Below, in pieces: positions 13,883 to 28,101 of a stretch of DNA of 28,225 nt (its first letter is position 1; each line of letters opens with the position of its first letter). The notes under the pieces are model-generated. The model was not told the origin of the DNA. It was given only the letters and a program-made list of their open reading frames with translations, and did not search any database. The stretch comes from an uncultured Erysipelotrichales bacterium. Lineage in GTDB: Bacteria > Bacillota_I > Bacilli_A > Erysipelotrichales > Coprobacillaceae. The stretch covers positions 1-28,225 of the forward strand of contig CAZWZD010000001.1 of NCBI GenBank assembly GCA_964638235.1. The letters run 5' to 3'. The translations under genes and the position numbers were made by a program.

Positions 13883-15049
13883 TTATTTGAATACAACTTT
13901 GTAACCTACCGTAGTTCCACCTTCCTGATATGGTTGTAGTTCACCATATGTTGCTGATGTTGAATGTAATTGACTATCCATATAAGAAACTGCTGCACTT
14001 TTACATGATGCAATATCGTAGTTGTAATCTCTAATATAGAATACTTTATTAGTTGGTTTTGGTTTATTAGATTGCTGTTGTTGTGGTTTAGAAGGATTGC
14101 TAGGTTTAGTTGAAGTGGAATTATTCGTATTTGGTAATTGATTTACTGGTTTTGGCTTTTCTTTAACTGTTACATTTAGTGTAGCAGTTGTTTTATTATT
14201 TGAAGAATCTTTTAGGTTGTATTGGAATGTAAATTTACCTTGTTGATTTGTATCAACATTACCTTCAAAAGTAATATCTTCTTTTTTTAACTTGCTGTAG
14301 TTATCATTAACGGATGCTACATAATCTAATGGATTGAAGGTATTGCCTTGTGTTAATGTTACTTCTTCTTGTTTTAGATTAATTGTTGGCTTTTGGTCAT
14401 CTATGACTGTAACAATTAAAGTTTTTGTTACTGTCTTCACACCATTACTAACTTCATAGACAAATTCATAATCCGTTAGCTGATCCATTTTCTGAAGCTT
14501 CGGTAATGTGATGGTATTCTTTTCATCATATTCTTTTACATAGTCAATTGGATGAAAGGTATCACCATAGGACAATGTAATATGATCATCTGTTAGTACT
14601 AAATTTATATCTTCATAATAGGCCATAATATAATCTTTCTTTGCAAATAATACAGCTGCTATTGATGATAGTAATAATGTAATAACAATAATGATTGTTA
14701 TTAACCTGGTTCTCTTTAAATGAATATCAGCTTTTGCATTTTCATAGACACCTTGATTTTCAAATAAATGAATTCTAATGTTTTCCATTGCTTCTGATGA
14801 GATATTAGGATTACACAATGGAGATGGATCAAGTCCATACTCCATTGCTAATGCTATTTCTCTCATCTGCTGCCAGTCATATCGAGGATTTTTGATGATA
14901 TCGATATCCAAGCCTTTTTCATCAGCAAGTCTTAACTGATTTTTTTGTCTTGCATCATAACTATAGGTTGAAAGTATATTATCTAATTTCTGGCTCATAG
15001 GTATATGGATTCTCTTCATATTCAAAGATATCAGGTAATTCACATTCAC
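13883..15049 (-). CDS. Membrane-anchored surface protein with Ig-like (DUF5011-like) domains (up to 388 aa)
   Basis: N-terminal GLD..NP..QM repeat module, TM helix ITIIIVITLLLSSIAAVLF, Ig-like units (DDQKPTINL..NVDTNQQGKFTFQYNLKDSSNN) and a P/S/N/Q-rich linker. Start codon uncertain; ATG at 14998 is an alternative. Confidence 0.7.
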   Translation of the reverse strand: MNVNYLISLNMKRIHIPMSQKLDNILSTYSYDARQKNQLRLADEKGLDIDIIKNPRYDWQQMREIALAMEYGLDPSPLCNPNISSEAMENIRIHLFENQGVYENAKADIHLKRTRLITIIIVITLLLSSIAAVLFAKKDYIMAYYEDINLVLTDDHITLSYGDTFHPIDYVKEYDEKNTITLPKLQKMDQLTDYEFVYEVSNGVKTVTKTLIVTVIDDQKPTINLKQEEVTLTQGNTFNPLDYVASVNDNYSKLKKEDITFEGNVDTNQQGKFTFQYNLKDSSNNKTTATLNVTVKEKPKPVNQLPNTNNSTSTKPSNPSKPQQQQSNKPKPTNKVFYIRDYNYDIASCKSAAVSYMDSQLHSTSATYGELQPYQEGGTTVGYKVVFK

Positions 15050-15393: not shown

Positions 15394-15415
15394 TACAAGG
15401 TAAATTTACCTTGTA
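15394..15415. repeat. 22-bp perfect palindrome, copy 1
   Basis: TACAAGGTAAATTTACCTTGTA, 13 bp upstream of the ATG at 15380. Confidence 0.97.
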
Positions 15416-15429
15416 ACCTTCTCCTTTCA

Positions 15430-15933
15430 TTATGATAGGAAGAATCCCTCATCTTCCTTAATTTCCATCGTATCAAATAGTTCAGCCATAATACTGTCAT
15501 CTTCTTTGATACTGTCATATGTTTCTATATATTTTGTATTATTGACCTGAAACTTAGGTTCAGTTTTCTTTTTAGGTTTATTTTCATCTTCAATCATCTT
15601 ATCTGCTGTCATCTTTAAAGCAATTTCTTCATTGATTGCTAATGCATCAGGTGCTTTACCAACATCTAAAAGTAATAATGACTGATAGAATAGATGAGGC
15701 TCTTCTTCCTTTAAATTCTTCAACTGTTTATACATGATATTTAAAAATTGCTTCTTTACCTGATCTTCAACCATAACTTCAACTGGCTGTTTTAAAATAT
15801 CCTGGTAATGCTTTGCTGGCACATCTGTGGGCTGTTTTGTTTCAGGGTTGATATAGGTATAAGTCATATCATGAATGGTTTTACACATTTCTGTAATCTT
15901 CATCTTAGAAAAAATATCAAACTGCTTATTCAT
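15430..15933 (-). CDS. Hypothetical protein (likely 167 aa; the ORF track starts it at 15984)
   Basis: GGAGTG SD before the ATG at 15933, which overlaps the stop of the upstream ORF. Confidence 0.65.
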   Translation of the reverse strand: MNKQFDIFSKMKITEMCKTIHDMTYTYINPETKQPTDVPAKHYQDILKQPVEVMVEDQVKKQFLNIMYKQLKNLKEEEPHLFYQSLLLLDVGKAPDALAINEEIALKMTADKMIEDENKPKKKTEPKFQVNNTKYIETYDSIKEDDSIMAELFDTMEIKEDEGFFLS

Positions 15934-16252
15934 TGTCATCACACTCCAATCCATAAAAATAATCATCTGTATCCTGATCATCAACTACATGATCATAGCC
16001 ATCAATCATTTCTGCCATAGTTAAAATAATAGATAATTTCACTTTATCTTCTAATTCATCTGTTGCTTCAATAGCACTTTCATACATTAATCTTGTTAAG
16101 GTAGTTTTACCTTTCATATCTTCTTTATATTCATCTTTCGCATTTGTAATTAAACCTAATACACTTAACTTAGCCTGGATGATTCTTTTATCTTCAGGTG
16201 TTAAGTTCTTATAGTTGATAATTACTGGATCTAAATTATTCATCATCTTCAT
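15926..16252 (-). CDS. Hypothetical protein (108 aa)
   Basis: Overlaps both neighbours, consistent with operon coupling. Confidence 0.65.
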   Translation of the reverse strand: MKMMNNLDPVIINYKNLTPEDKRIIQAKLSVLGLITNAKDEYKEDMKGKTTLTRLMYESAIEATDELEDKVKLSIILTMAEMIDGYDHVVDDQDTDDYFYGLECDDNE

Positions 16253-17405
16253 CCCTTCTTCTTGTTCCTACTTCACTGATAAATTCAATATACTGACGAT
16301 CATTCAAATTCATTAAGTAATCAGCCATGATATCCTTTGTTACTGCATCTCGATCAAGCAATCTCAAACTTCTTTGCAACTCTATATCTCTATTTTTAAG
16401 AAGTGAATACAAAGCATCTAAAAGAACATTTAATTCTTCATCTTCTTTTACTTCCTTATGTAATACAATATTTGTCATACGTTGTTTATTCATATCAAAT
16501 ATTTCAGAAGCATTAGATAATGCAAAGTTACATGATGTAAAAGCGAGATCTTCACTAAAGTTTAATGACTTAAATTTGCATTCTACAAAACTGCAATGTA
16601 AAAACTTTGATGACATTAAGACATTTTCAAAAGTTGAATAATCAAAGATGACCTTTTGTAACATCACCATGTCTAATGCCATATTCTTAAAGGTACAGTT
16701 TATAAAGTCCGTACTCGCATCCAACTGCATATTCTTATCAAACTCACAGGAAATAAATACACATTCACTAAACAAGGTATTCTTTAATTCCTTTAATCCA
16801 AATGATTCATTTTTATAGGTAACTTTTTCTACTGTCTGTCTTGTTGTAACTTCAACTTTTTTATGTTCTTCCACCTTTTCTTCTACTCCTGTTATAAATA
16901 ATTCTTCTCTGATATAAGCACCTTCAACCTTGTTTCCTTGTTCTTCTAATGTAGCAGGTTCTAAACTACTGCCAATTACTTTCATATTATTTAGATTATT
17001 ACCTTTAAAATCCACTTCTTCTAAGCCAGTACAGTTTACAAACAAGACTGAACTCAATGTTGATTCAACAATCGCTGAATCATTAAAAGTACAGTGATAG
17101 AAGCAACAGTTAGGTAACGAACATGTAGTAAACACAACATTATTAAATGTGCAGTTATAGAAGGTACATTTACCTGAAATCGTTAATGCTCTGAAATTGA
17201 CATTTTCCACAATGCAGTTTCGCATCATCATCTCTTTCTTTTGACCCCTTATTTGATTTTTAATCTTTAACATATCAAAAGAAGTTTCAGTAAAGATATC
17301 ATGCTGCTTGATATCTCCTAAAACTTCTTCTTCCAAATTTAAAAGAGGTACTGACGAATCAATACCTCGATTTAATAAAAACGTACTAATTTTATTATCT
17401 TCCAC
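16236..17405 (-). CDS. Pentapeptide-repeat protein with two repeat blocks (389 aa)
   Basis: Five-residue periodicity such as CTFYN CTFNN VVFTT CSLPN CCFYH CTFND and CVFIS CEFDK..CSFVE CKFKS. Overlaps the virD4 stop. Confidence 0.75.
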   Translation of the reverse strand: MEDNKISTFLLNRGIDSSVPLLNLEEEVLGDIKQHDIFTETSFDMLKIKNQIRGQKKEMMMRNCIVENVNFRALTISGKCTFYNCTFNNVVFTTCSLPNCCFYHCTFNDSAIVESTLSSVLFVNCTGLEEVDFKGNNLNNMKVIGSSLEPATLEEQGNKVEGAYIREELFITGVEEKVEEHKKVEVTTRQTVEKVTYKNESFGLKELKNTLFSECVFISCEFDKNMQLDASTDFINCTFKNMALDMVMLQKVIFDYSTFENVLMSSKFLHCSFVECKFKSLNFSEDLAFTSCNFALSNASEIFDMNKQRMTNIVLHKEVKEDEELNVLLDALYSLLKNRDIELQRSLRLLDRDAVTKDIMADYLMNLNDRQYIEFISEVGTRRRDEDDE

Positions 17406-19332
17406 TATTTTCCTTCTCCTTTATATCATCCATAATACTGAAATATTTTGGTTCCTTCTTTGCAACATATCTAAGTTTGTAATCTACAAGTGATGGATAG
17501 AACACATACTGATTAAATGGAATTACCTTAGTGATAAAAGCTTTTTCTCTTTGTCTAAGAATCAAGGCTTCACCAAATTTAAAGTTTTGTAATCTATCAG
17601 GTGTAATTACCCTTTCTAATTCTTTTCTACCATTTCTTGTAATGTAATGTGATCCACAACGTTTAGATAATTCATCTAATGTTTCATAATCACCACTTAA
17701 CAGATAAACAGTATTCTTTGCATTGTTCTTGATTGTCTTAGCAGTATTTTTGCCATAGGCATTATCTAACTGGTCATATCCCTGAACAACAGCAGTCAGT
17801 CTTACACCTCTAGAACGACCTGCAGTTAATACATTCGTGATTTCATCAAATGCTGGAAACTGGCCCATTTCATCAAACATGATATGAAATGGTATAGGAA
17901 GTCTTAAATTAGGTGATGATCTTGCCGTCTTAACAAGGCTTTGCCATAACTGTTTAATAAACAATGTAACTAATGGATAATATGTCTGCTTTTCATCATG
18001 AACCTTCAAGTAAATCATTGTCTTTTTATTACCAATATTCTCTAGATCAATATCATTATTAGACAGCATCTTTTTAATCGCATCATTAGTAACAATACTG
18101 TTTAAATGTTTAGTAAGAACATTACGTGAAGACTTTCTTGTCTGTTCAGCACTGTCTACATAAGACATTAGCTTTTCCTTACTTAGATCACTGTTTGTTT
18201 TATGATTTTGCAAATAATACTCTAACCAGGAAACATTACCTCGTGATGTTTTCTTTTTTATTTCATCACCTTCAAGCATAACTCTAGCCACTGCCGGTAT
18301 ATTAATCACATCAATATTGCCACTTTCAGCAAGTAAGTGAATATATCCCTCTAATACACGACTAGCTTCTTCATTCCAAAAGTTATCTTCATTTGCTTCT
18401 TTTTTGCCTGAAGTAATAGCTTGTACAACATCTCTGAAATATTCCTGAGCTGATGAAAAATCAGCTGTTGTTCTGAATTCTTGTCGATATTTGTCGTAAA
18501 TATAATCACCTGCATCATTTGTACCAAAATAAGATTCATAATTTGGTATAGCACCATCACCATATAAAGTCTGATATTCTTTATCTATTTCATCTTTCAT
18601 CCTGTGATAGCGTTCTAACTGTTCATCTTGAATAGCCAACTGTCTTACATATTCACTTGCACCTAAATATAATGGATTCCAGCAATCACTGTTATCTGGA
18701 TCAATGAAATCAATAAAGTAAACATCATAGCCTTGTGATTTAAAAAGTTCTGCAGTCTTTTCTGATAATTCACCTTTAATGTCTACCGTTAATCCTGATT
18801 CACCAGTCATTGCCATCAGACATAACATCGGCAGCATAAAACTAAATGATTTACCTGAACCTGATGAACCAATAATTAAGCTATGAGAGTCACTGTCATC
18901 AACATAGACATGATCTTTATAAGACATAAAAATAAGTCCACTCTTATCATGAGCAGACTTCGTTGGTAATCTCATATTTAAATAACTGTTAAACTTCTTT
19001 ATTCTTAAATCCATTGGTGATGTTGTAATATGACATTGCTTATCAAAATACAATGGGGTCATCTGTTTCTTGTAGTAATCCATATCCGTTAAAGATGAAT
19101 AGTTATCTTTATCACTTGTATCTTTATCATTCATCTTATTCATCAACAAAAACAAAGGAACTATTAATGTAAACATCGTCAATCCCATAAAATACGAACC
19201 ATTAATAAACAGATACTTTGGATTTACTGTAATTCCAACGTTACCTGAAAACAGAAATGCAAGCTGCATTCCTACAAAATAAACAACAAATAAACTTACT
19301 ATCCAGGATATCAATATTTTCTTCTTATCCAT
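17395..19332 (-). CDS. virD4: Type IV coupling protein, VirD4/TraG family (645 aa)
   Basis: Two N-terminal TM segments, Walker A GSSGSGKS, Walker B IMFDEMGQF, and GRSRGVRLTAVVQGYDQL..YG. Confidence 0.93.
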   Translation of the reverse strand: MDKKKILISWIVSLFVVYFVGMQLAFLFSGNVGITVNPKYLFINGSYFMGLTMFTLIVPLFLLMNKMNDKDTSDKDNYSSLTDMDYYKKQMTPLYFDKQCHITTSPMDLRIKKFNSYLNMRLPTKSAHDKSGLIFMSYKDHVYVDDSDSHSLIIGSSGSGKSFSFMLPMLCLMAMTGESGLTVDIKGELSEKTAELFKSQGYDVYFIDFIDPDNSDCWNPLYLGASEYVRQLAIQDEQLERYHRMKDEIDKEYQTLYGDGAIPNYESYFGTNDAGDYIYDKYRQEFRTTADFSSAQEYFRDVVQAITSGKKEANEDNFWNEEASRVLEGYIHLLAESGNIDVINIPAVARVMLEGDEIKKKTSRGNVSWLEYYLQNHKTNSDLSKEKLMSYVDSAEQTRKSSRNVLTKHLNSIVTNDAIKKMLSNNDIDLENIGNKKTMIYLKVHDEKQTYYPLVTLFIKQLWQSLVKTARSSPNLRLPIPFHIMFDEMGQFPAFDEITNVLTAGRSRGVRLTAVVQGYDQLDNAYGKNTAKTIKNNAKNTVYLLSGDYETLDELSKRCGSHYITRNGRKELERVITPDRLQNFKFGEALILRQREKAFITKVIPFNQYVFYPSLVDYKLRYVAKKEPKYFSIMDDIKEKENSGR

Positions 19333-19344
19333 GCATCTCCTTCC

Positions 19345-19366
19345 TACAAGGTAAATTTACCTTGTA
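19345..19366. repeat. 22-bp perfect palindrome, copy 2
   Basis: Exact copy, 12 bp upstream of the virD4 ATG and directly 5' of its GGAAGGAG SD. Confidence 0.97.
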
Positions 19367-19400
19367 AATAAAAAAGACATTGTATAGTTACAATATCTTT
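19367..19400 (-). terminator. Intrinsic terminator after the TetR gene
   Basis: Minus strand AAAGATATTGTA-ACTA-TACAATGTCTTT followed by TTTATTT. Confidence 0.7.
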
Positions 19401-19411
19401 AGTCATTTTAC

Positions 19412-19975
19412 TTAAGCTTTGCGATAAACAAAATCGAACGCTTTACTGATTCGTTCAACAATATCAAATCCACCATTTGAAATTGACCAGTCTACTGAAA
19501 TTCCAAACACGACATCTGAATATAAACGAACAAGTTCTTCTCCATTTAATTCAGAGCTAATTATACCTTGATCTATCAAATTCTGCACAATTGCCACATC
19601 TGAACTTCTAAAATCTTCGACATCAACTTCTTTAAAAGATTCTGGGCTTTTACGATACATCATAATAACCTGTGTGCCTGAAAAAGATAGTTCATATCCT
19701 AATGTTTCCACATATTTTGCCCATTGAAGTTCTTTTGTTTTGAACTGATCATATGTTACAACCTCAGGTTGTAACAGGTAGCCTTTTTCAATCTCTCTAT
19801 AATTTTTTATAATCCACTGAAGAAGCAGATCTTCTTTACTCTTGAAATGATGGTAAAAGGAACCTTTTGTAACATTGAATTCTTGACAAATCATCTGAAC
19901 GGTAACATTTTCAATTCCTTTTTCTTTGAACAATTCAATTGATCTAGCCATCATATCGTCTGATTTAACTATCAC
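19412..19975 (-). CDS. TetR/AcrR-family regulator (187 aa)
   Basis: SIELFKEKGIENVTVQMICQEFNVTKGSFYHHFKSKEDLL HTH. Extended -10 TGcTATAAT at 19997-20005. Confidence 0.92.
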   Translation of the reverse strand: MIVKSDDMMARSIELFKEKGIENVTVQMICQEFNVTKGSFYHHFKSKEDLLLQWIIKNYREIEKGYLLQPEVVTYDQFKTKELQWAKYVETLGYELSFSGTQVIMMYRKSPESFKEVDVEDFRSSDVAIVQNLIDQGIISSELNGEELVRLYSDVVFGISVDWSISNGGFDIVERISKAFDFVYRKA

Positions 19976-20018
19976 ATTTCATCACGCTCCTTCTCTATTA
20001 TAGCATCTTTCGCCACTC

Positions 20019-20051
20019 AAAACAAAAGCAGAAGCCACTTTTGACTTCTGC
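20019..20051 (-). terminator. Intrinsic terminator after the SDR gene
   Basis: Minus strand GCAGAAGTCA-AAAG-TGGCTTCTGC followed by TTTTGTTTT. Confidence 0.75.
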
Positions 20052-20067
20052 CATCAGTTATTATGTT

Positions 20068-20871
20068 CTATTTGTCGATATCTGGATTTTTCCATTGAAC
20101 TGGTCGCATATGTCCAGAGTTCATTGCTCCATCAATTGTAATTGTTGTACCTGTAAGATATGGTGCAAGATCACTAGCTAAGAATAATGCTGTATTTGCA
20201 ATTTCTTGAGGTTCAGCTAATCTTCCCATAGGAACTGTTTGACAGAATCCATCAATATATGATTGAGGGGCCATTGCCCAAATTTCTGTTTTTGTTGTAC
20301 CTGGACAGATAGCATTTACTCTAATGTTATGTTTTGCATAATCTAGAGCAGCTGTTTTTGTCATGTTTACTACTGCTGCTTTTGCCATTGTGTATAAAGC
20401 CATTCCTTGTGTTCCTTGGAATGCACCATTAGAAGCTGTATTAATGATGAATCCACCTTTTTTACCTTTTAAGATAGCTTCTGCACCATATTTCATACCC
20501 ATGAAGACACCTTTTTGGTCAATACCAATTACTTTTTCATAATCTGCTACTGTAATTTCATGAACTGGTGCTTCTGGAATTCCCATTCCAGCATTATTAA
20601 CAATACCATCTAGTTTTCCATATGTTTCTACAGTAAAATCAACCATATGCTTTACATCTTCTTCTTTAGAAACATCAACCTTAACAAAGGCAGCTTCATT
20701 TCCAGCCGCTTTAATTTCATCAACAACTTGTTTTCCTTTTTCTTCATTGAAGTCAGCAATCACTACTTTCATTTGATTTTCCGCAAAAGTCTTGGCCATA
20801 GCCTTTCCCATACCGCTACCGGCACCTGTAATTAAAACTACCTTTCCGATACAACTACTAAAATCTGTCAT
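20068..20871 (-). CDS. Classical short-chain dehydrogenase/reductase (267 aa)
   Basis: TGAGSGMG, NNAG, catalytic YTMAK and RVNAICPG motifs. Asp at the end of beta-2 (IADFN) suggests NAD(H) preference. Confidence 0.93.
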   Translation of the reverse strand: MTDFSSCIGKVVLITGAGSGMGKAMAKTFAENQMKVVIADFNEEKGKQVVDEIKAAGNEAAFVKVDVSKEEDVKHMVDFTVETYGKLDGIVNNAGMGIPEAPVHEITVADYEKVIGIDQKGVFMGMKYGAEAILKGKKGGFIINTASNGAFQGTQGMALYTMAKAAVVNMTKTAALDYAKHNIRVNAICPGTTKTEIWAMAPQSYIDGFCQTVPMGRLAEPQEIANTALFLASDLAPYLTGTTITIDGAMNSGHMRPVQWKNPDIDK

Positions 20872-20889
20872 GTTAAATTCTCCTTCCGC

Positions 20890-20911
20890 AAAACATACTC
20901 GGGTATGTTTT
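20890..20911. promoter_or_regulatory. Candidate TetR operator O1
   Basis: AAAACATAC-TCGG-GTATGTTTT, just downstream of the -10. Confidence 0.75.
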
Positions 20912-20918
20912 CAAGTAT

Positions 20919-20947
20919 ATTATATGAACTTACAGCTATAGAGTCAA
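20919..20947 (-). promoter_or_regulatory. Sigma-A promoter of the SDR gene
   Basis: TTGACT-N17-TATAAT. Confidence 0.8.
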
Positions 20948-20977
20948 CAAAAAACATACTCAGGTATGTTTTTTGTT
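20946..20977. promoter_or_regulatory. Candidate TetR operator O2; may also act as the relaxase terminator
   Basis: AACAAAAAACATAC-TCAG-GTATGTTTTTTGTT; same core as O1 and abuts the -35. Confidence 0.7.
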
Positions 20978-21002
20978 TGTGAAACTTATTATTTCATTAA
21001 GA

Positions 21003-22178
21003 TTAAACCAGCAATTGTTCTTCCATCCTTCGATTATATTCCTCAATAGCCTTATCAATTTCACTTTGTTGCTCATTAGCTAATTTATGGATGTATCCTT
21101 TAAGCTTGGCCTCAGTAAGAAACTTCCTCTTATAGGTTCTTTTAATTTTAGAAGGTAAATTTACCTTGTTACTATCTTTTGATGTTGATTCTACATATTC
21201 TGTCTTTTTATAATTTTGCAGGATATAGTTACCAACTTTAGCATAGAACTTTTCAAGTTCAGCTTCTTGGATAGTTGCTAGATCATTACCTTCTTCATTT
21301 ATAACTTCTTCTAATTGATCCAATTTATTTACATATTCATTAAACGCTATATTTAGTTCATCATCATTTTGAATTAGATCATCAATGATAGATTTTATCA
21401 TCGGCTGATACTGCTTCATATTGTATGAGTTATACTGAAGCCTGCCTGTCTTTGGTAAGACTTTATATAAATCTCTTAACTTAGGATTTTTCTTTAAATC
21501 CTTTTTTTCAATTGATGTCATCAGTTCCTTAAGTGACATATCTTTTTCCTGGAAAAATAATCTGTAATTTTTACCTGTTCTTTCTTTTAGTTTTGCTCTT
21601 GCACTTAATGATGAATATATATGTCTTTTTACATTCTTCATTTCTCTTGGGGTAAGTTTACCTCTAGTTCTTGTTTGATTCTTTTCCATAAATACAAGAT
21701 GAATATGTGGATGTTCGGTATTACGGTGTAAATCAAACCACCATAATGTGTTGTTGTAATCTATATGATATTCCTTCAGCATCTTTGGCAGGAATTCTTT
21801 TACTGCAGATAACCATTGCTCTGTATTTTCTAAACCTAACTGATAAGCTTCATTATCGTCTTCTAAGGAAATGACATAATCCCAGCATAGATTCCCATCT
21901 TTATGAAAGCATTGATCTATTTCTTTTTTAAAGGCATCACGTTCTTCTTTGGTATTTAATTCACCACTTGAACTATAGGTTCCAACACTATGACTGCCTG
22001 TATATCCAAAATATCCATCTTCCTGTTTATCAATTTCTTTATCTACATCTTTAGCTTCTTCTCGACCTGTATAATCAAAATAGCCACCAACTGTTTCATT
22101 CGAGATTGTATCTTTAAATCTTGAATTCTTTGGTGGCTTTTGTCCATATTCAAAAAATCTTATTTTTGTAATCTTCAT
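21003..22178 (-). CDS. mobL: MOBL-family relaxase (391 aa)
   Basis: YFDYTGREEA (catalytic Tyr region), WDYVISL, and WWFDLHRNTEHPHIHLVFME (His triad), the pattern of MobL relaxases. Confidence 0.85.
   Translation of the reverse strand: MKITKIRFFEYGQKPPKNSRFKDTISNETVGGYFDYTGREEAKDVDKEIDKQEDGYFGYTGSHSVGTYSSSGELNTKEERDAFKKEIDQCFHKDGNLCWDYVISLEDDNEAYQLGLENTEQWLSAVKEFLPKMLKEYHIDYNNTLWWFDLHRNTEHPHIHLVFMEKNQTRTRGKLTPREMKNVKRHIYSSLSARAKLKERTGKNYRLFFQEKDMSLKELMTSIEKKDLKKNPKLRDLYKVLPKTGRLQYNSYNMKQYQPMIKSIIDDLIQNDDELNIAFNEYVNKLDQLEEVINEEGNDLATIQEAELEKFYAKVGNYILQNYKKTEYVESTSKDSNKVNLPSKIKRTYKRKFLTEAKLKGYIHKLANEQQSEIDKAIEEYNRRMEEQLLV
21149..21170. repeat. Palindrome copy 3 (20/22), inside the relaxase CDS
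   Basis: TAGAAGGTAAATTTACCTTGTT; encodes NKVNLPS on the minus strand. Confidence 0.85.
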
Positions 22179-22185
22179 GATTATC

Positions 22186-22207
22186 TACAAGGTAAATTTA
22201 CCTTGTA
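22186..22207. repeat. 22-bp perfect palindrome, copy 4
   Basis: Exact copy between an AGGAGG SD and the relaxase ATG, 7 bp from the ATG. Confidence 0.97.
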
Positions 22208-22219
22208 ACCTCCTCTACA

Positions 22220-22249
22220 TAAAAAAAGGTACAGACTGAACTGTACCTT
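22220..22249 (-). terminator. Intrinsic terminator after the flavoenzyme gene
   Basis: AAGGTACAG-N6-CTGTACCTT followed by a T-run on the minus strand. Confidence 0.8.
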
Positions 22250-22254
22250 CATTA

Positions 22255-24186
22255 TTATTTAATGCTAATACCAGCATCAAATCCCTCTTCAATTGCGTCT
22301 AGTGCATTACTTGTTTTAACTGCACCACCAACAACCATTACATTATCAAATTCTTCTTTTAACGCTTCAACTAATGAATTTTCTGGTGTATATCCCATAC
22401 CTAATACAACCATTTGACATGGAATTTTGAAAGTTTCACCTTTCTTATCTACAACAACGCCATCATCTTCAATAGCAACAACTTTAGTTCCTAAATGTCT
22501 TGCAACATTGTACTTATCTAAGTTTTTATTAATAGCGATAGCAGCTACACCATTAATATCAGTTAACATTTGATCTTTCATTTCTACTAGTGTAACCATT
22601 CTTTCTTGAATAGCTAAATGAGAAGCTGTTTCAGCACCAACTTCACCACCACCGCAAACAACAATGACATCAGCTGGTTGAACTTTGCCTAATAATACTT
22701 CTTCAGCGCTATATACATGTGGTAAGTTAATTCCTGGAATATTAGGACGAATTGGTTTACCACCTGTTGCACAAATGATAACATCTGGATTTTCTTTCTT
22801 TAGTAAATCCATAGTAACTTCTGTATTTAAATGAACTTCTACTGTACTTTCTTTGATTTCCTTTAAAATCCAGTTAGTGTACATAGCTAATGAACCCTTG
22901 TTTGGTGGGAATGCAGCAGAAACAAATTGTCCACCTAAGAAATCTTGTTTTTCATATAGTTTAACATGATGTCCTTTAATTGCAGCAGCTCTAGCAGCTT
23001 CAAGTCCACCTACACCACCACCGATAACTACAACATTCTTTGGTGATTCTACTTTAGAATAATCTAATTTATATTCTTTACCTAATGTTGGGTTAACTAA
23101 ACATTTAGCACCTGTAGGACCTTGTCCATTATCAACACATCCTTGAATACATCCAATACAGTAACGGATATTTTCATATTCACCCTTTTTAGCCTTAGCT
23201 GGGAAGTAAGGATCAGCTAATGATGCTCTACCCATAGCAACAAAATCAGCTTTATTTAATTCTAAGATTGTATCTGCCATTTCAGGATCATTAATTCTAT
23301 TAACAGCGATAACTGGAATATTTACCATACGTTTTACTTCAGCAGCATAATCAACAGCCCAAGCTAAATCAGTGTACATATGAGAGACAATGCTTTGATA
23401 GTTTGTACTATATGTACCAGTTGATGAATGAATACCATCAAATCCCCATTCTTCAAACCATCTTGCTAGAATTCTACTTTCCGCAATTGTTCTTCCACCT
23501 TCCTTCATCTCTACTGCAGAGAAACGAATGATTACAGGGAAATCTTTACCAACTTTACTACGAATATTATCAATGATTTCATGTACGATTCTAGCTCTGT
23601 TAGCTAAACATCCTCCATATTCATCAACACGTTTGTTTGAATATGGTGATAAGAATTGTGCTAATAAGTAACCATGGCCAGCATGTACTTCAATACCATC
23701 AAATCCTGCTTTTTTAGCTCTTAATGCAGTATCACCAAAATCTTCAACGATTTTATGAATTTCTTCAACTGTTAATGGTCTAGGTAATTGTCTATTCCAT
23801 GGACATGGAATAGGACTAGCAGAGATAACTTCTCCTCCCCCATTAACCATTGGATTTGTTTGTCTACCAGCATGATAAATCTGACAGAAAATTTTTGTTG
23901 GATATTTGTGAATACGATCAGTGAATTCTTTATTTAATGCAATCTGATCATCATTGTATAATCCAGCGATACGGTCTAAACCACCAGCATGTTCACTAAT
24001 AGTGTAGTTTTCTGTAATAATTAAACCCCATCCACCTTTAGCTTTTTCTTCATGATAAGCCATGTATTTTTCTGTAAGAGTTCCATCATAATTGTTGTAA
24101 TCCATAGCCATGGCTGGAACTACCATACGGTTTGGAATTTCTACATTACCGATTTTCATTGGTGTAAATAATTTTTTTAGTGTCAT
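22255..24186 (-). CDS. NADH:flavin oxidoreductase (OYE TIM barrel, 4Fe-4S, FAD/NAD domain; BaiCD/BaiH/FadH-like family) (643 aa)
   Basis: HAGHGYLLAQFLSP, Fe-S motif CIGCIQGC-x11-C, and GGGVGG and GGGEVG Rossmann motifs. Confidence 0.93.
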   Translation of the reverse strand: MTLKKLFTPMKIGNVEIPNRMVVPAMAMDYNNYDGTLTEKYMAYHEEKAKGGWGLIITENYTISEHAGGLDRIAGLYNDDQIALNKEFTDRIHKYPTKIFCQIYHAGRQTNPMVNGGGEVISASPIPCPWNRQLPRPLTVEEIHKIVEDFGDTALRAKKAGFDGIEVHAGHGYLLAQFLSPYSNKRVDEYGGCLANRARIVHEIIDNIRSKVGKDFPVIIRFSAVEMKEGGRTIAESRILARWFEEWGFDGIHSSTGTYSTNYQSIVSHMYTDLAWAVDYAAEVKRMVNIPVIAVNRINDPEMADTILELNKADFVAMGRASLADPYFPAKAKKGEYENIRYCIGCIQGCVDNGQGPTGAKCLVNPTLGKEYKLDYSKVESPKNVVVIGGGVGGLEAARAAAIKGHHVKLYEKQDFLGGQFVSAAFPPNKGSLAMYTNWILKEIKESTVEVHLNTEVTMDLLKKENPDVIICATGGKPIRPNIPGINLPHVYSAEEVLLGKVQPADVIVVCGGGEVGAETASHLAIQERMVTLVEMKDQMLTDINGVAAIAINKNLDKYNVARHLGTKVVAIEDDGVVVDKKGETFKIPCQMVVLGMGYTPENSLVEALKEEFDNVMVVGGAVKTSNALDAIEEGFDAGISIK

Positions 24187-24219
24187 AATTACATTCTCCT
24201 TTTCTGTTTTACACTAAAA

Positions 24220-24250
24220 ATTATAAGTATTGTAGTAACCACTAGGTCAA
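24220..24250 (-). promoter_or_regulatory. MerR-type promoter with a 19-bp spacer, driving the flavoenzyme gene
   Basis: TTGACC-N19-TATAAT with a TAGT-GGTT-ACTA dyad in the spacer; divergent from the MerR gene. Confidence 0.8.
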
Positions 24251-24286
24251 ACTATTTTTTTCACAAATGTGTTATAATAGATAACG

Positions 24287-25102
24287 GTGATAGATATGAA
24301 ATATACAGTAAAAGATGTTTGCAAGATTTATAAAATTAATAGAGAAACTTTACGTTACTATGAAAAAGAAGGATTAATAAAACCAATCAAGGATGAATAT
24401 AACAATTATCGTTACTATGATGAATGGGAAATCAACTTCATTGGTGAATGTCGTAAATATCGTTCTATGGGATTTAGTATTCAAGAAATTAAAGAAGTTC
24501 TTTCAACTGATAATCTTGAACAATTCATCCAAAAAGTTGAATCGAAACAAAAAGATATTGATGACCAGCTACATTTTTACCAGATGTGGAGTAAAAGAAA
24601 CAGTGAATATGTCACTGATTTAAAAAATATCATTCCACGTTTAGGAAAGATTGAAATTGTAGACTCTGAACCACGTTACATCATGCCATATCGTAAACAG
24701 TATAATCAGCTGATGGACAAAAAAACATTAAGCGCCATGACCGATTTAATGGACAATCATACGTTTGTAGATAGTATGTTATTTATTCCTTATGATGACT
24801 ACATCAATAAAACAGAAAATTTTTACTGGGGATTCTCTATTCGTGACCGCTGGGTAGATGCTCTAAACTTTCCTGCAGAGCAATATATTCATGAAAATAA
24901 GCAAAAATGCATCTGTACAACAATTGATGCTGGTGATAAAGGTGGTGTCAACTACAACCTTTTTAAAGATGTTATGACCTATATGGAATATCATCGTTTC
25001 AAACTTTGTGGTGACATTTTTGGTATTCTATTAACTCGTGTTCATGAAAATGGCAAATACTGTCGATATTTAGAAATGTATTTTCCAATAACTGACGCAT
25101 AA
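24287..25102 (+). CDS. MerR-family regulator with a C-terminal effector (GyrI-like) domain (about 270 aa)
   Basis: YTVKDVCKIYKINRETLRYYEKEGLIKP..NNYRYY HTH. Extended -10 TGtTATAAT at 24270-24278. ATG at 24296 is a likely start. Confidence 0.92.
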   Translation: MIDMKYTVKDVCKIYKINRETLRYYEKEGLIKPIKDEYNNYRYYDEWEINFIGECRKYRSMGFSIQEIKEVLSTDNLEQFIQKVESKQKDIDDQLHFYQMWSKRNSEYVTDLKNIIPRLGKIEIVDSEPRYIMPYRKQYNQLMDKKTLSAMTDLMDNHTFVDSMLFIPYDDYINKTENFYWGFSIRDRWVDALNFPAEQYIHENKQKCICTTIDAGDKGGVNYNLFKDVMTYMEYHRFKLCGDIFGILLTRVHENGKYCRYLEMYFPITDA

Positions 25103-25125
25103 TTACATAGACACTAACGATGAGT

Positions 25126-25147
25126 TACAGGGTAATTTTACCTTGTA
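25126..25147. repeat. Palindrome copy 5 (20/22), overlapping the stop of the 94-aa ORF
   Basis: TACAGGGTAATTTTACCTTGTA, with palindromic flanks AGT/ACT (25123-25150). Confidence 0.9.
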
Positions 25148-25422
25148 ACTTTTTCTATATATTCTTTTAATGCATTTAACATTTCAGCATTACCAACCAT
25201 AAACTGATTCAAAATTGCTTCATCATGTTCTCTAAACAGTTCGTTTAAGATATTGGAATTGAATTTGATTCTGGTTTCATAAAGATCCATCATCTCATCA
25301 AAGATATCTGCAAATGTATAATCAAGTCCACATACTTCTTTAAGATAAAGCTGAATATTCTGCAGCTTTCTGTCAAAATCAGCACTTACTCGATAATTTC
25401 TTTTAACTTTCATAATCTTCAT
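25138..25422 (-). CDS. Ribbon-helix-helix-like protein (94 aa), candidate relaxosome accessory factor or regulator
   Basis: Alternating beta-strand KRNYRVS followed by two amphipathic helices (ADFDRKLQNIQLYL, TFADIFDEMMDLY). Confidence 0.55.
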   Translation of the reverse strand: MKIMKVKRNYRVSADFDRKLQNIQLYLKEVCGLDYTFADIFDEMMDLYETRIKFNSNILNELFREHDEAILNQFMVGNAEMLNALKEYIEKVTR

Positions 25423-25451
25423 AGTTACAAGGTAAATTTACCTTGTAACTA
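25422..25451. repeat. Palindrome copy 6 (core 25426-25447), extended to a 30-bp perfect palindrome
   Basis: TAGTTACAAGGTAAATTTACCTTGTAACTA spans from the stop codon of one RHH-like ORF to the first base of the next start codon. Confidence 0.97.
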
Positions 25452-25769
25452 CTCATCCTTTCCTAGTTTCATTTTTATATATTTATCACACATTGCTTCT
25501 TCATTCAGTGACTTCATTAATATTGCCATATTGGTTGGAATTGACTTGTTATGCTTAACAAGCAAACCCAAGTATTCATGGTTATACTGACTTAATTCTA
25601 AAATCACATTTAACGTATCAACATTAATAGAATCCATTGCGTTATATGATTTAATCATCTGTTCAAGAAGCTCTCCTTTCGATAAATTTGGTTTACCTTT
25701 AGACACTGCATTAAACATATCTTTTACATGTCCTTGACATCTGATTGTTATATTTGTTTCATTAGCCAT
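25449..25769 (-). CDS. Ribbon-helix-helix-like protein (likely 106 aa; the ORF track starts it at 25835)
   Basis: AAAGGA SD before the ATG at 25769; beta-strand TNITIRC followed by helices HVKDMFNAVSK and SKGELLEQMIKSY. Confidence 0.55.
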   Translation of the reverse strand: MANETNITIRCQGHVKDMFNAVSKGKPNLSKGELLEQMIKSYNAMDSINVDTLNVILELSQYNHEYLGLLVKHNKSIPTNMAILMKSLNEEAMCDKYIKMKLGKDE

Positions 25770-25789
25770 ATGTATACTTTTCCTTTCTT

Positions 25790-25933
25790 TAGCAGGATAA
25801 GGGATAATGTACGAATGTTTTGCAACATTTCGCATACATTACCGTCCTGTACAACTCAACAACGTTGAGTTTATCGATGTTTTTTGAGTTTTCAGTACGT
25901 ATACAAAACTTATTACACCTTGTACGAATGTAA
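25790..25933. other. Candidate oriT region
   Basis: Non-coding gap upstream of the RHH-RHH-MobL module. Inverted repeats at 25814-25829 and 25853-25871; 11-bp direct repeat TGTACGAATGT at 25808 and 25921. Confidence 0.5.
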
Positions 25934-26140
25934 TTAATCCCATGTATACGTTGCATTTTGATTAGGAACTTCATCCTTAAAAAAAGACGTTCTAATTGGA
26001 ACGCCTGATTTAGTTATCTTTTCCCATACATTATGATGTGTATAGGATGCTACCATTGTCCATCCATAGGACTTGGTACCTACTTTGACTGGATATTTAA
26101 CCTTATTATATTTGATTCTTGTACCTGCGATAACGATCAC
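25934..26140 (-). CDS. Small basic hypothetical protein (68 aa)
   Basis: GTG start directly after the ardC stop; no convincing SD. Confidence 0.4.
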   Translation of the reverse strand: MIVIAGTRIKYNKVKYPVKVGTKSYGWTMVASYTHHNVWEKITKSGVPIRTSFFKDEVPNQNATYTWD

Positions 26141-27436
26141 CTACTTTACCGCTACTGCATCTTTAGAGTCCTGAAACTTTAGACTCATCACTTCATCCAT
26201 TGCCATTCCTTTAGCCATCCAAAGAAATGCTAACAGATAATCTTCTTTATTAAATTCTTCCATAAACATATCGTTAGAAGTATTATCAGCACATACAATC
26301 TTTTCACCATCAAAGGTATAATAAATCTTAGGTTCAACTTCTTTCTGATTACTCCAGTCATCAACTAAAATTGTCATTTCCTTTGGATCAACTTCTTGGT
26401 AACCATTTCTTAAAATCATTCTTAGTTCATCTTTACTGATTGCATTTTCCTTATAACTTCCATCAACAATTGCTTCATTAACAGACGCTTCTATCTTTAC
26501 CAGTCGTTCATAATGTCCTTTATCCAAAATATATTCACAGATACTTTCAGCATCCTTGATTGCTGAAAATAATGTATTTGGCTTTTCTTGTATTGCTTTT
26601 AACCAGCTTTGAATATAAGCTTGACTGTTTTCTAAATAATCTTCATTCTTTTGAGGAATAATCCCTAAGTCATTGCAAATAAAAGAAGAACCTATTTCAG
26701 CTCTTAGTTCTTCTATTGCATATGCTTCTTGATCTTCCATAAAGTATTTAATTGGTCTGTTTAATCTACTTTGATGTGCTGTTGAATGTGATACTTCATG
26801 AAATGCATCACTAAAGAATGCATCAGTTAATTTATATCGATGATGATCAGGAACAACTACCTTATCATCATTTAGATTATAGAATGGTGTATTAACTTTA
26901 TGATCCTCATTTAAATCTAGTCCAGTTTCATGAGCAAATTCATAAAGCAGATAATATGATAATGAAAATTGATCATCTATTTCATCTTTAACAATAGCTT
27001 TGTTTTCTTTATACGGTTCAATACCATCCATCTGTTTAGCATTAAATACAGTATAAACCTGTGAGATATATCTGATATCATCTTTTCTATCAGGTTCTTT
27101 ATTTAACAAATCATGTAACTGTGAAAAAGTAAGTTTTTTCTTTTCTTTGGTATCATAAATGCTCCAGTATTCAATGGGTACACCTTTTTCACCTTTATGG
27201 ATATGATAGCCTTTTTCTGATGCCTGTTTGAATGTCATCCATCTTGGATCATCGTACTGATGAATATACTCATTTAAATATAGAATGAATCGATTACTGT
27301 TTTTATAGGTTGTATTTGTAATAGGATTGAATGATGTTCTAGAAGGGATAAAGCCTTGATGCCAGGGTAAATCTTCCTTTTCAAGACAGTCAACAAATAG
27401 CTTTACAATCTCTTCTCTGGCTTTATTCTGTTTCAT
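26141..27436 (-). CDS. ardC: ArdC-family antirestriction protein (ssDNA-binding N-domain and zincin-like domain) with a C-terminal extension
   Basis: LPWHQGF, NPITNTTYKNSN, DPRWMTFKQA..GYHIHKGEKG, YTVFNAKQMDG, HEVSH and YAIEELRAEIGS motifs. The ATG at 27436 has an AGAGGA SD. Confidence 0.9.
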   Translation of the reverse strand: MKQNKAREEIVKLFVDCLEKEDLPWHQGFIPSRTSFNPITNTTYKNSNRFILYLNEYIHQYDDPRWMTFKQASEKGYHIHKGEKGVPIEYWSIYDTKEKKKLTFSQLHDLLNKEPDRKDDIRYISQVYTVFNAKQMDGIEPYKENKAIVKDEIDDQFSLSYYLLYEFAHETGLDLNEDHKVNTPFYNLNDDKVVVPDHHRYKLTDAFFSDAFHEVSHSTAHQSRLNRPIKYFMEDQEAYAIEELRAEIGSSFICNDLGIIPQKNEDYLENSQAYIQSWLKAIQEKPNTLFSAIKDAESICEYILDKGHYERLVKIEASVNEAIVDGSYKENAISKDELRMILRNGYQEVDPKEMTILVDDWSNQKEVEPKIYYTFDGEKIVCADNTSNDMFMEEFNKEDYLLAFLWMAKGMAMDEVMSLKFQDSKDAVAVK

Positions 27437-27536
27437 CTGCAAGTTCCTCTAACGTATAAACAGTATCTTCACTTTCTTCATTGTCATATGGATTGACTTC
27501 ATCAAAATCAAACTGATCTAGTATTTCTAAAGGCAT
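27423..27536 (-). CDS. Unannotated 37-aa hyper-acidic microprotein MPLEILDQFDFDEVNPYDNEESEDTVYTLEELADETE
   Basis: Translated by hand. AAGGAAGGTG SD. Start overlaps the upstream stop and its stop overlaps the ardC start. 15 D/E and no K/R/H. Confidence 0.75.
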   Translation of the reverse strand: MPLEILDQFDFDEVNPYDNEESEDTVYTLEELADETE

Positions 27537-27976
27537 ACTGCTTCACCTTCCTTTGCTTTATAATCCATAAAGTTTAGTTCTGGGTGCTGTTCAATAAAGA
27601 AATCTAATAATGGTTCTAAATCTTTTCTATTTTCACAACCTAAGAAATAATCTGTACCTTCATCAGTAAATTCAATACTGAAGAATACTCTTTTATCTTT
27701 GTCGTATGGATTAGCTAAGCAAAAGACATTATCATGAATGACTTCTGGATTGCCTTCAAAGAATAAAACAAAAGGTGGACAGTCAATTTCTTTTAATGAT
27801 TGTGGATAATCAGGTGCGATGATATTTAATGAATCCTCTTCAATGTCATCAATATACTGATCAATTTCTTCATCTGTTAATCTTTCTTTTGTAGCAATTG
27901 CCTGATAGATTCTTCTAAAATCGCCTTCATACTTTTCAGTAAATGCCATAATGGTATCTTCCATGGATCTATTCAT
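27527..27976 (-). CDS. DprA/Smf N-terminal-like protein lacking the DprA Rossmann core (149 aa)
   Basis: KYEGDFRRIYQAI..E and DYPQSLKEIDCPPFVLFFEGN match the DprA N-terminal signature, but no VGTR/SGLAxGID follows. AAGGAGG SD. Confidence 0.65.
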   Translation of the reverse strand: MNRSMEDTIMAFTEKYEGDFRRIYQAIATKERLTDEEIDQYIDDIEEDSLNIIAPDYPQSLKEIDCPPFVLFFEGNPEVIHDNVFCLANPYDKDKRVFFSIEFTDEGTDYFLGCENRKDLEPLLDFFIEQHPELNFMDYKAKEGEAVCL

Positions 27977-28085: not shown

Positions 28086-28101
28086 CTTTTTCTCCTTCCA
28101 A

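Follow-up and report, generated by a model that had tools for sequence, protein, structure and literature searches.

Why does one perfect 22-bp palindrome, TACAAGGTAAATTTACCTTGTA, recur directly ahead of the transfer genes of an integrative conjugative element (ICE), and is it used as a protein-binding site on DNA, as a hairpin in mRNA or as a place where modules join? In the 28,225-nt window (the whole stretch of DNA that was analysed) the palindrome has four exact matches, at 15394, 19345, 22186 and 25426, and two further matches with two mismatches each, at 21149 and 25126, precisely the copies listed in an earlier note made on this DNA. None of 100 dinucleotide-preserving shuffles, in which up to three mismatches were allowed, gave a match, so that none would be expected by chance. 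The exact copies stand 13, 12, 7 and 3 nt upstream of minus-strand start codons, as had also been noted, and these belong to a 133-aa ORF (15380), virD4 (19332), mobL (22178) and a 94-aa ORF (25422) respectively. In addition, the defence region and the cargo genes are indeed free of the motif, with no copy at up to five mismatches below position 14223 and none within the cargo genes.

The two transfer genes with recognizable products encode a MobL-family relaxase (21003..22178, minus strand; Pfam PF18555, E = 1.6e-24) and a VirD4/TraG coupling protein (17395..19332, minus strand; Pfam PF02534, E = 2.6e-42). Cargo 1 (22255..25102) consists of an old-yellow-enzyme-type flavin oxidoreductase gene on the minus strand and a MerR regulator gene on the plus strand, and cargo 2 (19412..20871, minus strand) of a short-chain dehydrogenase gene and a TetR regulator gene. 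The exact copy at 25426..25447 starts 1 nt past the stop codon of a 128-aa ORF (25449..25835, minus strand) and ends 3 nt ahead of the ATG of the 94-aa ORF (25138..25422, minus strand). At the other end of this ORF a degenerate copy (25126..25147, two mismatches, right arm decayed) forms the left border of cargo 1, and the 94-aa ORF takes its final codons (V-T-R) and its stop from the left arm of this copy. On the right, cargo 1 is bordered by the exact copy at 22186..22207, which follows the terminator of the flavoenzyme gene and has a GGAGG Shine–Dalgarno (SD) sequence 1 nt upstream and the mobL ATG 7 nt downstream. A two-mismatch copy lies within mobL itself (21149..21170), 49 codons ahead of the stop, and is kept at the equivalent position in the sister element G001. 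Further along, the exact copy at 19345..19366 is found 12 nt ahead of the virD4 ATG, with the SD downstream of the palindrome, and that at 15394..15415 is placed between a AAGGAGAAGG SD and the ATG of the 133-aa ORF 13 nt downstream. A weak copy with four mismatches (14223..14244) falls within the gene of a 388-aa Ig-like surface protein.

Confinement to the ICE and its relatives

We scanned the whole assembly (1.78 Mb in 326 contigs, the window sitting on contig C1) and related elements, as the earlier note had suggested, and found the motif confined to the element. Every match with up to four mismatches in the assembly was either on C1, where copies are also present at 40306, 32855 and 14223, or at C47:4524, on the contig that carries the integrase/ParAB end of this ICE; the reversed pattern gave 0 matches in the whole assembly. 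There are thus no copies outside the ICE contigs of this genome, and the spread across the host chromosome that would have spoken against an element-wide site is not seen. The same copies recur in ten independent contigs from Logan, ENA and NCBI, so they are not an assembly artefact. The earlier proposal of an element-wide control site for DNA-processing genes is therefore right in its first half, all copies being on the ICE, and too narrow in its second, as copies also stand ahead of parA and of the adhesin/T4SS operon, and some fall inside genes. A scan of genome contigs with the 18-bp core of the palindrome returned 28 loci, nearly all of them single terminator hairpins or coding matches in unrelated phyla, with G001 as the only true relative; we attribute the foreign matches to chance, because in hairpin-rich contexts the information in a palindrome is halved. 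A search of the plasmid collection gave no close relative of the element, and the ICE was not found in any RNA-seq run.

At least ten related MobL-type ICEs occur in the same host family, and each has its own dispersed palindrome of 18-22 bp, present in 5-27 copies and confined to the element, with 0 matches in the reversed-pattern controls. These palindromes include ACACGGCAA-NN-TTGCCGTGT (9-10 copies), AAATGGCAA-NN-TTGCCATTT (12 copies), GCCCGTCA-N4-TGACGGGC (nine copies), AGGTGGCAA-NN-TTGCCACCT (8-13 copies) and, among others, TGTAGCAA and GATGGAAC (14-27). The chromosomal scatter typical of REP or MITE sequences was not found in G000, G001, G003, G034, G060, G063, G044 or G045, the exceptions outside ICE contigs being three weak two-mismatch matches (two in G060 and one in G034).

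Two patterns run through the family. Within one element the arms of the palindrome are conserved and the central 2-4 bp are free, to the point of being inverted (AC/GT), and the half-sites vary independently, an A[C/G]A variation leaving uncompensated G-G or C-C positions that are kept between sister elements. Conserved arms, a free centre and independent half-sites are what is expected of a dimer on double-stranded DNA and not of an RNA hairpin read through its loop, so that the data would fit an operator for an element-encoded dimeric binder, as the earlier note had proposed. In contig C18 of G073, two copies differ in their outer arms and each is self-complementary, which hints at selection that may act on pairing. 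The second pattern is one of position: approximately 70% of intergenic copies across the elements lie 3-50 nt ahead of a start codon (median distance 19 nt), and wherever the intergenic region is 100 nt or longer (17 of 17 cases) the palindrome adjoins the downstream start. About a fifth of copies (13 of 70) are intragenic, at positions kept between sister elements, and palindrome positions are kept generally between elements that have diverged by 6-13%. In all seven fully assembled elements checked, representing five groups, a palindrome is found at or within approximately 250 bp of parAB.

Candidate DNA-binding proteins

Among the gene families common to all five element groups compared, the sole recognized sequence-specific DNA binder is a ParB homologue, in this ICE a protein of 239 aa (C47:2864-3583) encoded next to parA in the same element, outside the window. 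Its ParA partner, a 292-aa AAA_31/CbiA/ParA protein encoded directly upstream, is kept in all groups. The ICE ParB has a ParB_N domain (Pfam) and a GxxRxxA arginine patch, in the form LIGGHRRYNAL or LIGGERRYTAL, which is conserved in seven homologues, and a PDB profile search matched it to Noc, Spo0J and ParB. An AF2 model places a helix-turn-helix at residues 149-171 (helices 149-157 and 161-171), after the N-terminal domain, and Foldseek aligned this model over 150-171 columns with ParB–parS, Noc and KorB structures (the KorB entries being 8qa8 and 8qa9), with E values down to 5e-8. In 320 genomes from the other families of the order, a search turned up no ParB of this type. The reading that we prefer, although we rate it as evenly poised between right and wrong, is that the palindrome is an element-specific putative binding site of the ICE's own ParB-family protein, which would control the transfer modules in the manner of KorB or BisD.

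The ParB recognition helix and the core of the palindrome covary. A helix that starts with G-R-T pairs with a GGCAA core in at least nine elements and G-K-T pairs with GGTAA in two separate ParB clades (G000, G001 and G037 in one, and contig C18 of G073 in the other), and the cores CGTCA, AGCAA and GGAAC go with different recognition helices. This covariation is a correlation with just two independent changes from Arg to Lys. The recognition helices of G060 and G045 are identical, yet their half-sites differ in the outer 3 nt, and the reading of these nucleotides must fall to a different part of ParB or to a different protein. Chromosomal parS sites of Bacillota have a canonical 16-bp consensus, TGTTNCACGTGAAACA, with which the palindrome has no half-site in common, and the earlier note was correct in setting the two apart.

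We infer ParB binding at the palindromes, the direction of regulation and CTP-dependent sliding from these observations. On double-stranded DNA, a ParB dimer would read two half-sites of 9-10 bp, (T)ACAAGGTAA, and the 2-4 base pairs at the centre would play no part in recognition. As the sites head the partition, adhesin/T4SS, relaxosome, coupling-protein and surface-protein modules, often straight after a terminator, bound or clamped ParB would control the entry of transcription into each module, and it would probably also mark the excised element for partition. Several observations count against ParB as the reader. The loader of a sliding clamp has no need to be placed 3-50 nt before a start codon, a small element in G004 and G003 carries one copy upstream of parA without this ParB, and the self-complementary outer arms in contig C18 of G073 hint at selection on pairing. 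Nor was a sigma-A promoter consistently found directly upstream of the palindromes; a -10-like hexamer 3-20 nt upstream is present in about one-third of sites, which is not clearly above background. Sigma-54, MerR-type and class II activator layouts were rejected on inspection, as their spacing to the ATG is unsuitable. We also considered the 310-aa protein encoded upstream of parA, which has language-model similarity to MobA/MobL, as a second HUH relaxase that might read the hairpins, and dropped it because the alignment contains no conserved histidine triad and no conserved nick sequence flanks the palindromes.

The earlier note had drawn an analogy with KorA/KorB, which we judge apt, and had named two small RHH-like proteins as the nearest candidates for the binder, for which the case is weaker than for ParB. 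These are the 94-aa protein, a possible ribbon-helix-helix relaxosome accessory protein by its AF2 topology, and as the second candidate the 128-aa protein (106 aa in G001); one or both might use the palindrome as the operator of a global transfer-gene regulator, which we consider unlikely. RHH regulators do act globally on the transfer genes of some Gram-positive plasmids, and here the 94-aa ORF is flanked by palindromes on both sides, both ORFs lie upstream of mobL, the usual place of relaxosome accessory proteins, both proteins have a strand-helix-helix-like N-terminus by alignment and AF2 model, and their fast divergence parallels that of the palindromes. However, G000 and G001 have identical palindromes, and yet their 94-aa proteins are 71% and their 128/106-aa proteins 57% identical, with the putative DNA-reading strand being RNYRVS in one and KAYWVS in the other, whereas it is the ParB helix that covaries with the core. 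The AF2 model of the 94-aa protein (an extended N-terminus followed by helix, helix and long helix) is compatible with an RHH topology, but the protein has no match in Pfam, NCBIfam or PHROG, Foldseek returned nothing significant for it, and BLAST found no homologues of the RHH-like proteins in some of the element groups.

Possible roles in mRNA and at module junctions

The earlier note had also listed an mRNA hairpin and a recombination site as alternatives. Neither is the best explanation of the data, but the split SDs and the bracketing of cargo in the window lend each some support, so that both may act as secondary functions. If the primary role were at the RNA level, a hairpin next to the ribosome-binding site would set translation or mRNA stability: it could connect a distant SD with the AUG, keep the AUG or SD hidden until the stem is melted by a ribosome from upstream, or protect a processed 5' end. 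Judged from sequence and folding, mobL, the 133-aa ORF and the 94-aa ORF each have their SD over 20 nt away from the AUG and a stable hairpin in between, and for three of the four exact copies the sole good SD is upstream of the palindrome; that of mobL is 30 nt from the AUG, a distance which would shrink to approximately 8 nt if the hairpin formed. Folding energies of the hairpins range from -11 to -20 kcal/mol (z-scores from -2.8 to -6.9), and at 25426 the stem grows to 14 bp (-18.2 kcal/mol), in which the UAG region upstream is paired with the AU of the start codon AUG. The median of 19 nt to the start codon and the retention of an SD upstream of the right-hand copy after cargo insertion in two lineages fit as well. 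Split ribosome-binding sites with a hairpin between a distant SD and the AUG are known from phage T4 genes 38 and 25, and a hairpin would restore the SD–AUG spacing in the same way for the three genes here; the T4 hairpins, however, are single and gene-specific, whereas the ICE reuses one sequence, also where bridging is unneeded. A primary role in RNA is nevertheless improbable, given that within an element the stem sequence is conserved beyond mere pairing and the loop is variable, that the G-G and C-C positions are conserved although uncompensated, that wobble pairs show no sense-strand bias and that roughly one copy in five is intragenic. SD bridging is not general either, as the SD follows the palindrome in most related elements, and an element-specific sequence would still need a sequence-specific reader.

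The two levels could also be combined in a dual-use connector between modules, acting on DNA as ParB-clamp loader, insulator and insertion point and on mRNA as a translation-coupling or -bridging hairpin, and we regard this as rather unlikely. Cargo with its own promoters and terminators would then slot in without disturbing the control of the transfer genes, and one co-evolving 22-bp word would organize the regulation, translation and modular evolution of a Gram-positive conjugative-element family.

Doubtful, and distinctly so, is a recombination or module-junction site for the gain, loss or exchange of cargo between related elements. Cargo 1, the MerR/flavoenzyme insert, is missing from the sister element G001 and some metagenome contigs, and it is flanked by a duplicated stretch of approximately 36 bp that contains the palindrome, with the degenerate 25126 copy in one half of the duplication; cargo 2 abuts the upstream edge of the 19345 copy exactly and is likewise missing from G001. 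Gut metagenome contigs have empty sites, joining 19367 directly to 21003 without cargo 2, and one has a different insert of 2251 bp at the same spot. At the junction of ORF94 and mobL, for which G003 has a single copy, G034 has two copies with 701 bp inserted between them. Of 15 synteny breaks between sister elements, five are no more than 10 nt away from a palindrome's upstream edge, but the other ten, among them two insertions of group II introns and a variable region by the lysozyme gene, have no palindrome, and breaks beside palindromes are expected anyway, because the only neutral DNA is that between the upstream gene end and the palindrome. Most copies are at invariant backbone junctions, and apart from the ICE integrase, a tyrosine integrase, we found no dedicated recombinase. 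A likeness exists to the PeSL cassettes of T4-type phages, in which a promoter and a stem-loop flank variable ORFs and a role in shuffling has been deduced from circles: both are short, repeated stem-loop regulatory units at module borders that flank inserted genes. In contrast with PeSLs, which contain a promoter, the ICE palindrome has no evident one and is mostly at invariant junctions. Integron attC sites do not match either: they are imperfect palindromes (57-141 bp) with extrahelical bases and go with an IntI integrase nearby and cassettes that lack promoters, whereas the ICE has a perfect 22-bp palindrome beside cargo with its own regulators and terminators. We also rejected the idea that an ancestral frame is restored when the copy within mobL is joined to that at virD4, because mobL is full-length in G001, where both copies are 172 bp apart with no cargo.

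Finally, it is very improbable that the palindrome is a REP- or MITE-like extragenic palindrome or a mere terminator with no element-specific function: its 18-bp core does occur in terminator hairpins of unrelated phyla, a terminator scan flagged the 15394 copy and the plus-strand reading of the 25126 copy, and T-runs follow several copies in G038, but the foreign matches are single and explained by chance, copies are absent outside the ICE in the genomes tested (bar the three weak matches), positions are kept between diverged elements and most copies have no T-run. On the coding (minus) strand the 15394 copy alone was flagged, and copies other than those flagged as terminators are followed next by an SD or ATG.

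Comparison with known ParB systems

A few proteobacterial models, namely RK2 KorB, ICEclc BisD and NAH7 ParB, are known in which a ParB-type protein controls a conjugative element globally. On the IncP plasmid RK2, KorB acts at 12 OB sites of 13 bp each, with KorA or TrbA as clamp-locking partners. As in our ICE, a ParB-family protein is encoded beside ParA, and the site is a perfect palindrome in approximately ten copies near the starts of transfer and maintenance operons, sometimes intragenic. The ICE differs in being an integrated element in a Bacillota host, in having sites of 20-22 bp with a free centre in place of 13 bp and in placing them between terminator and SD, whereas OB lies beside the -35 box; a KorA homologue was not identified in the ICE, and KorB-like repression is proposed here by analogy.

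In ICEclc of Pseudomonas, BisD reads bisS, a 23-bp palindrome with 11-bp arms and a 1-bp centre; there are only two bisS sites, and BisD, which has an additional activator domain, cooperates with BisC at promoter motifs that are separate from bisS (PMC12409273). A ParB-like protein of an ICE, a long element-specific palindrome that is partly intragenic and, as we propose, control of transfer genes would be common to both, but an element of the present family has 8-27 sites, the majority of them at gene starts, and lacks a known BisC-like partner. On NAH7, ParB–parS repeats are found near the transfer and partition genes, and ParB acts as an activator (bioRxiv 10.1101/2025.01.22.634284). Repeated sites in such positions, and the putative regulatory role, are alike, whereas NAH7 is proteobacterial and has few sites.

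These comparisons point to a comparable ParB-type system in chromosomal ICEs of anaerobic gut Bacillota. It would differ from the proteobacterial models in having far more sites, in their fixed place between terminator and ribosome-binding site, and in a site sequence that has diversified between elements together with one residue of the ParB recognition helix. The family could thus provide a natural series in which to study the evolution of ParB specificity and the insulation of co-resident related elements from one another. In addition, the palindrome offers a simple sequence signature with which to delimit such ICEs in metagenomes and to find their cargo slots, which are occupied here by redox enzymes with their own regulators.

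Palindrome copies in the element and its relatives

The repeat TACAAGGTAAATTTACCTTGTA is a perfect 22-bp palindrome, which the earlier note had read as marking the starts of conjugation genes, and both the copies it claimed and their distances from start codons were borne out. All genes of the palindrome region lie on the minus strand, and the four exact copies stand 13 nt before the ATG of the 133-aa ORF (copy at 15394), 12 nt before that of virD4 (copy at 19345; gene at 17395..19332), 7 nt before that of mobL (copy at 22186; gene at 21003..22178) and 3 nt before that of the 94-aa ORF (copy at 25426; gene at 25138..25422), while two further copies, at 21149 and 25126, carry two mismatches each. 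No match was obtained in 100 dinucleotide-preserving shuffles. The window covers bases 1-28225 of a 41.4 kb source contig (C1), which belongs to a 1.78-Mb, 29% GC, 75%-complete assembly, in which the remaining copies lie on the same contig (40306, 32855 and 14223) or at position 4524 of contig C47 and none elsewhere, so that the motif is not spread across the host chromosome. The genes on C47 encode an integrase, two Xre-type regulators, ParA, ParB, SSB and a primase, and its collinearity with the corresponding element in a related genome shows it to be the other end of one ICE. The palindromes were found again in ten independent public contigs.

The sister element in the Bacillota MAG G001, which is 87-95% identical, has the identical palindrome at the same gene junctions. 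In more distant MobL-type ICEs of the same host family, whose relaxases are 34-54% identical, equivalent positions are occupied by other palindromes, namely ACACGGCAA-NN-TTGCCGTGT in genomes G003 and G034, AAATGGCAA-NN-TTGCCATTT in G060, GATGGAAC-NN-GTTCCATC in G038 and G070 and GCCCGTCA-N4-TGACGGGC in G063, together with the palindromes or half-sites ACATGGCAA (G017), AGGTGGCAA (G044 and G045), AAAGGTGGCAA (G048), GGGTGGCAA (G049) and TGTAGCAA (G040). Whole-genome pattern searches gave 8-14 copies per genome, nearly all on element contigs, and none for reversed-pattern controls; in G038, 27 copies lie within 40 kb. The palindrome observation is thus confirmed and extended to a wider ICE family. 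In G038 (contig C5; loci L147 and L148), several of the 27 copies are followed by terminator-like T-runs, three lie within a ~45-bp repeated unit, with the -10-like TATAGAAT immediately before, and four copies precede a second recurrent motif, ATGTCTCCGAACATTCAC.

Site anatomy and candidate binding proteins

The anatomy of the sites was assessed over 70 palindrome copies in seven elements, 13 of them intragenic and 57 intergenic. A start codon lies within 50 nt downstream of 39 of the 57 intergenic copies (median 19 nt), and in each of the 17 intergenic regions of 100 nt or more the palindrome is 13-55 nt from the downstream start and 55-471 nt from the upstream stop, a common order being terminator, 15-25 nt, palindrome, 1-10 nt, SD and ATG. 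Within an element, conservation of the arms reaches 9-10 bp from the centre, the 2-4 bp in the middle are variable and found in both orientations (AC and GT), and the half-sites vary independently, with ACA or AGA in either arm giving G-G or C-C positions that are kept between sister elements. Between elements, both arms change jointly. An exception is contig C18 of G073, where two copies have a common GGTAAATTTACC core and differ in their outer arms, each of which is self-complementary. This conservation fits two half-sites on double-stranded DNA, as would be read by a symmetric dimer, and fits poorly with a protein reading an RNA loop. From the general structure of A-form helices, it would likewise be unusual for a regular 9-bp RNA stem to be read in a sequence-specific way.

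An all-against-all comparison gave a core common to five element groups, consisting of a 310-aa protein, ParA, ParB, SSB, primase, T4SS proteins, ArdC, MobL, VirD4 and a pentapeptide-repeat protein, in which ParB is the sole recognised sequence-specific double-stranded-DNA binder. This 239-aa protein (C47:2864-3583) has a ParB_N domain with an arginine patch, its profile matched PDB entries for Noc, Spo0J and ParB, its AF2 model (pLDDT 81) has a helix-turn-helix at 149-171, and Foldseek matched that model, across 150-170 columns, to chains of ParB, Noc and KorB. The ParB proteins of the window's genome (G000) and G001 are 94% identical with an identical helix-turn-helix, and a palindrome copy lies at or near parAB in all seven fully assembled elements (five groups). 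In addition, the opening residues of the recognition helix change with the palindrome's inner core: G/A-R-T-x-Q-x-Y-I-N accompanies GGCAA (G003, G034, G060, G044, G045, G048, G049, G017, contig C8 of G073 and G074), P-S-T-V-Q accompanies CGTCA (G063), P-R-T-V-Q-S-L-L accompanies AGCAA (G040) and G-R-G-V-x-K accompanies GGAAC (G038 and G070), while G-K-T-x-Q accompanies GGTAA in G000, G001 and G037 and, separately, in G073-C18, whose closest relative in the ParB tree, G074, combines Arg with a GGCA core. This ParB type was found in 15 of 80 genomes of the window's host family and in 0 of 320 genomes elsewhere in the order, and no close plasmid relative was found in the plasmid collection. We consider an element-specific ParB/KorB-like site system, in which ParB would bind the sites and regulate the genes, the most likely mechanism, with about an even chance. 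The RHH-like small ORFs upstream of mobL, which the earlier note had favoured as binders, fit less well on comparison with G001, in which their putative DNA-reading strand differs while the palindrome is identical (overall identity 71% for the 94-aa ORF and 57% for the 128-aa ORF at 25449..25835 (-), which has 106 aa in G001), and both are RHH-like by topology alone, with no family match and no significant fold match.

Several observations concern the neighbourhood of parA. The gene for the 310-aa protein (L006:4543-5475, C47, minus strand) lies directly upstream of parA in all element groups, and one palindrome copy starts with the three bases of its stop codon; the protein resembles MobA/MobL by language-model features only and has no conserved histidine triad. 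A second, ParB_N-only protein (L006:5655-6149) has 164 aa here as against 304 aa in G004, and the ICE copy may be truncated. Upstream of parA in G003 (C62, ~19692-19740; L101:7693-7745), a variant palindrome, GGCGGCAACATTGCCGG, stands 13 nt after the family palindrome, a double site that is kept in G034. A small integrated element ~91% identical to the ICE left end (G004:C1, ~287000-294000, and G003:C43; L089, L090, L092 and L093) encodes an integrase, two Xre regulators, a ParB_N protein, the 310-aa protein and ParA, with one palindrome copy and neither transfer genes nor further palindromes.

Comparison with known ParB-type systems

The closest systems to this arrangement are proteobacterial. 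On RK2, KorB binds 12 OB palindromes and, with KorA or TrbA as partner, silences operons. In ICEclc, the ParB-like BisD acts as a CTP-dependent clamp that loads at two intragenic 23-bp bisS palindromes and activates transfer promoters with BisC (PMC12409273), and the ParB of NAH7 activates conjugation genes from parS repeats (bioRxiv 10.1101/2025.01.22.634284). Our literature search found no published description of such a ParB-site system in Gram-positive ICEs.

Translation signals and module junctions

The palindromes also lie among translation signals. The palindrome lies between the mobL AUG and its only good SD (GGAGG), which are 30 nt apart, and the arrangement at the 133-aa and 94-aa ORFs is similar. 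The palindrome hairpin folds at ~-11 kcal/mol; that at 25426 extends to 14 bp (-18.2 kcal/mol), with the upstream stop region pairing with the AU of the AUG, and at 19345 an upstream U-tract pairs with the SD (-17.9 kcal/mol). The SD positions and predicted folds suggest real translational consequences, whether by coupling, occlusion or bridging. Since the SD stands after the palindrome in most related elements, SD bridging is not its general function; effects on translation are plausible as a secondary property. Downstream of the 40306 copy (C1:40272-40305; L005), the palindrome and a good SD are followed by an 8-codon ORF, ATGAAAAATAGAATAAGAGGCCCATGA, preceding the GTG start called for a 1315-aa SpaA/thioester adhesin, and this ORF could encode a leader peptide; alternatively, the start assigned to the adhesin could be wrong.

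Two inserts are present in the window relative to G001. Cargo 1 (MerR and a flavin oxidoreductase) is bounded by the 25126 and 22186 copies and flanked by a duplicated stretch of ~36 bp, made up of a 14 bp SD flank and the palindrome, of which the left copy (25126) has lost the SD and right arm and still codes the last residues and stop of the 94-aa ORF. Cargo 2 (SDR and TetR) spans exactly from the mobL stop to the 19345 copy. Both sites are empty in pig and bovine gut metagenome contigs, in one metagenome contig the 94-aa ORF and mobL are separated by a different insert, of 2251 bp, and at this junction G034 has a 701-bp insert between two palindrome copies where G003 has one copy. Between sister elements, 5 of 15 synteny breaks are no more than 10 nt from a palindrome's upstream edge; the other 10 lie away from palindromes and include a group II intron (Rfam-confirmed), another insert of about that size and a variable region by the lysozyme gene. 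We read the palindrome as marking the start of a conserved unit, with variable DNA tolerated immediately upstream. The break pattern is not proof of a recombination site, and a cargo-tolerant module junction is plausible as a secondary property.

The intron interrupts the adhesin gene of G001 over 2.7 kb (L036:5886-8608; C112:25886-28608), with Rfam matches to D1-D4 and D5/D6; the other insert, also 2.7 kb, separates the 110-aa and 221-aa T4SS genes and had no Rfam match. The ardC-to-mobL stretch (21003-28225) is ~87% identical to G001, as against 93-95% for the T4SS and virD4 stretches, with the two small ORFs as its most divergent part, and looks like a recombination patch that may have arrived with cargo 1. 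The interval from the lysozyme/NlpC gene to the DUF5688 gene (~1500-2400; L151-L160), which has no palindrome, is a second variable slot, holding a NERD-domain gene, an AAA_21 ATPase gene or unrelated genes depending on the contig.
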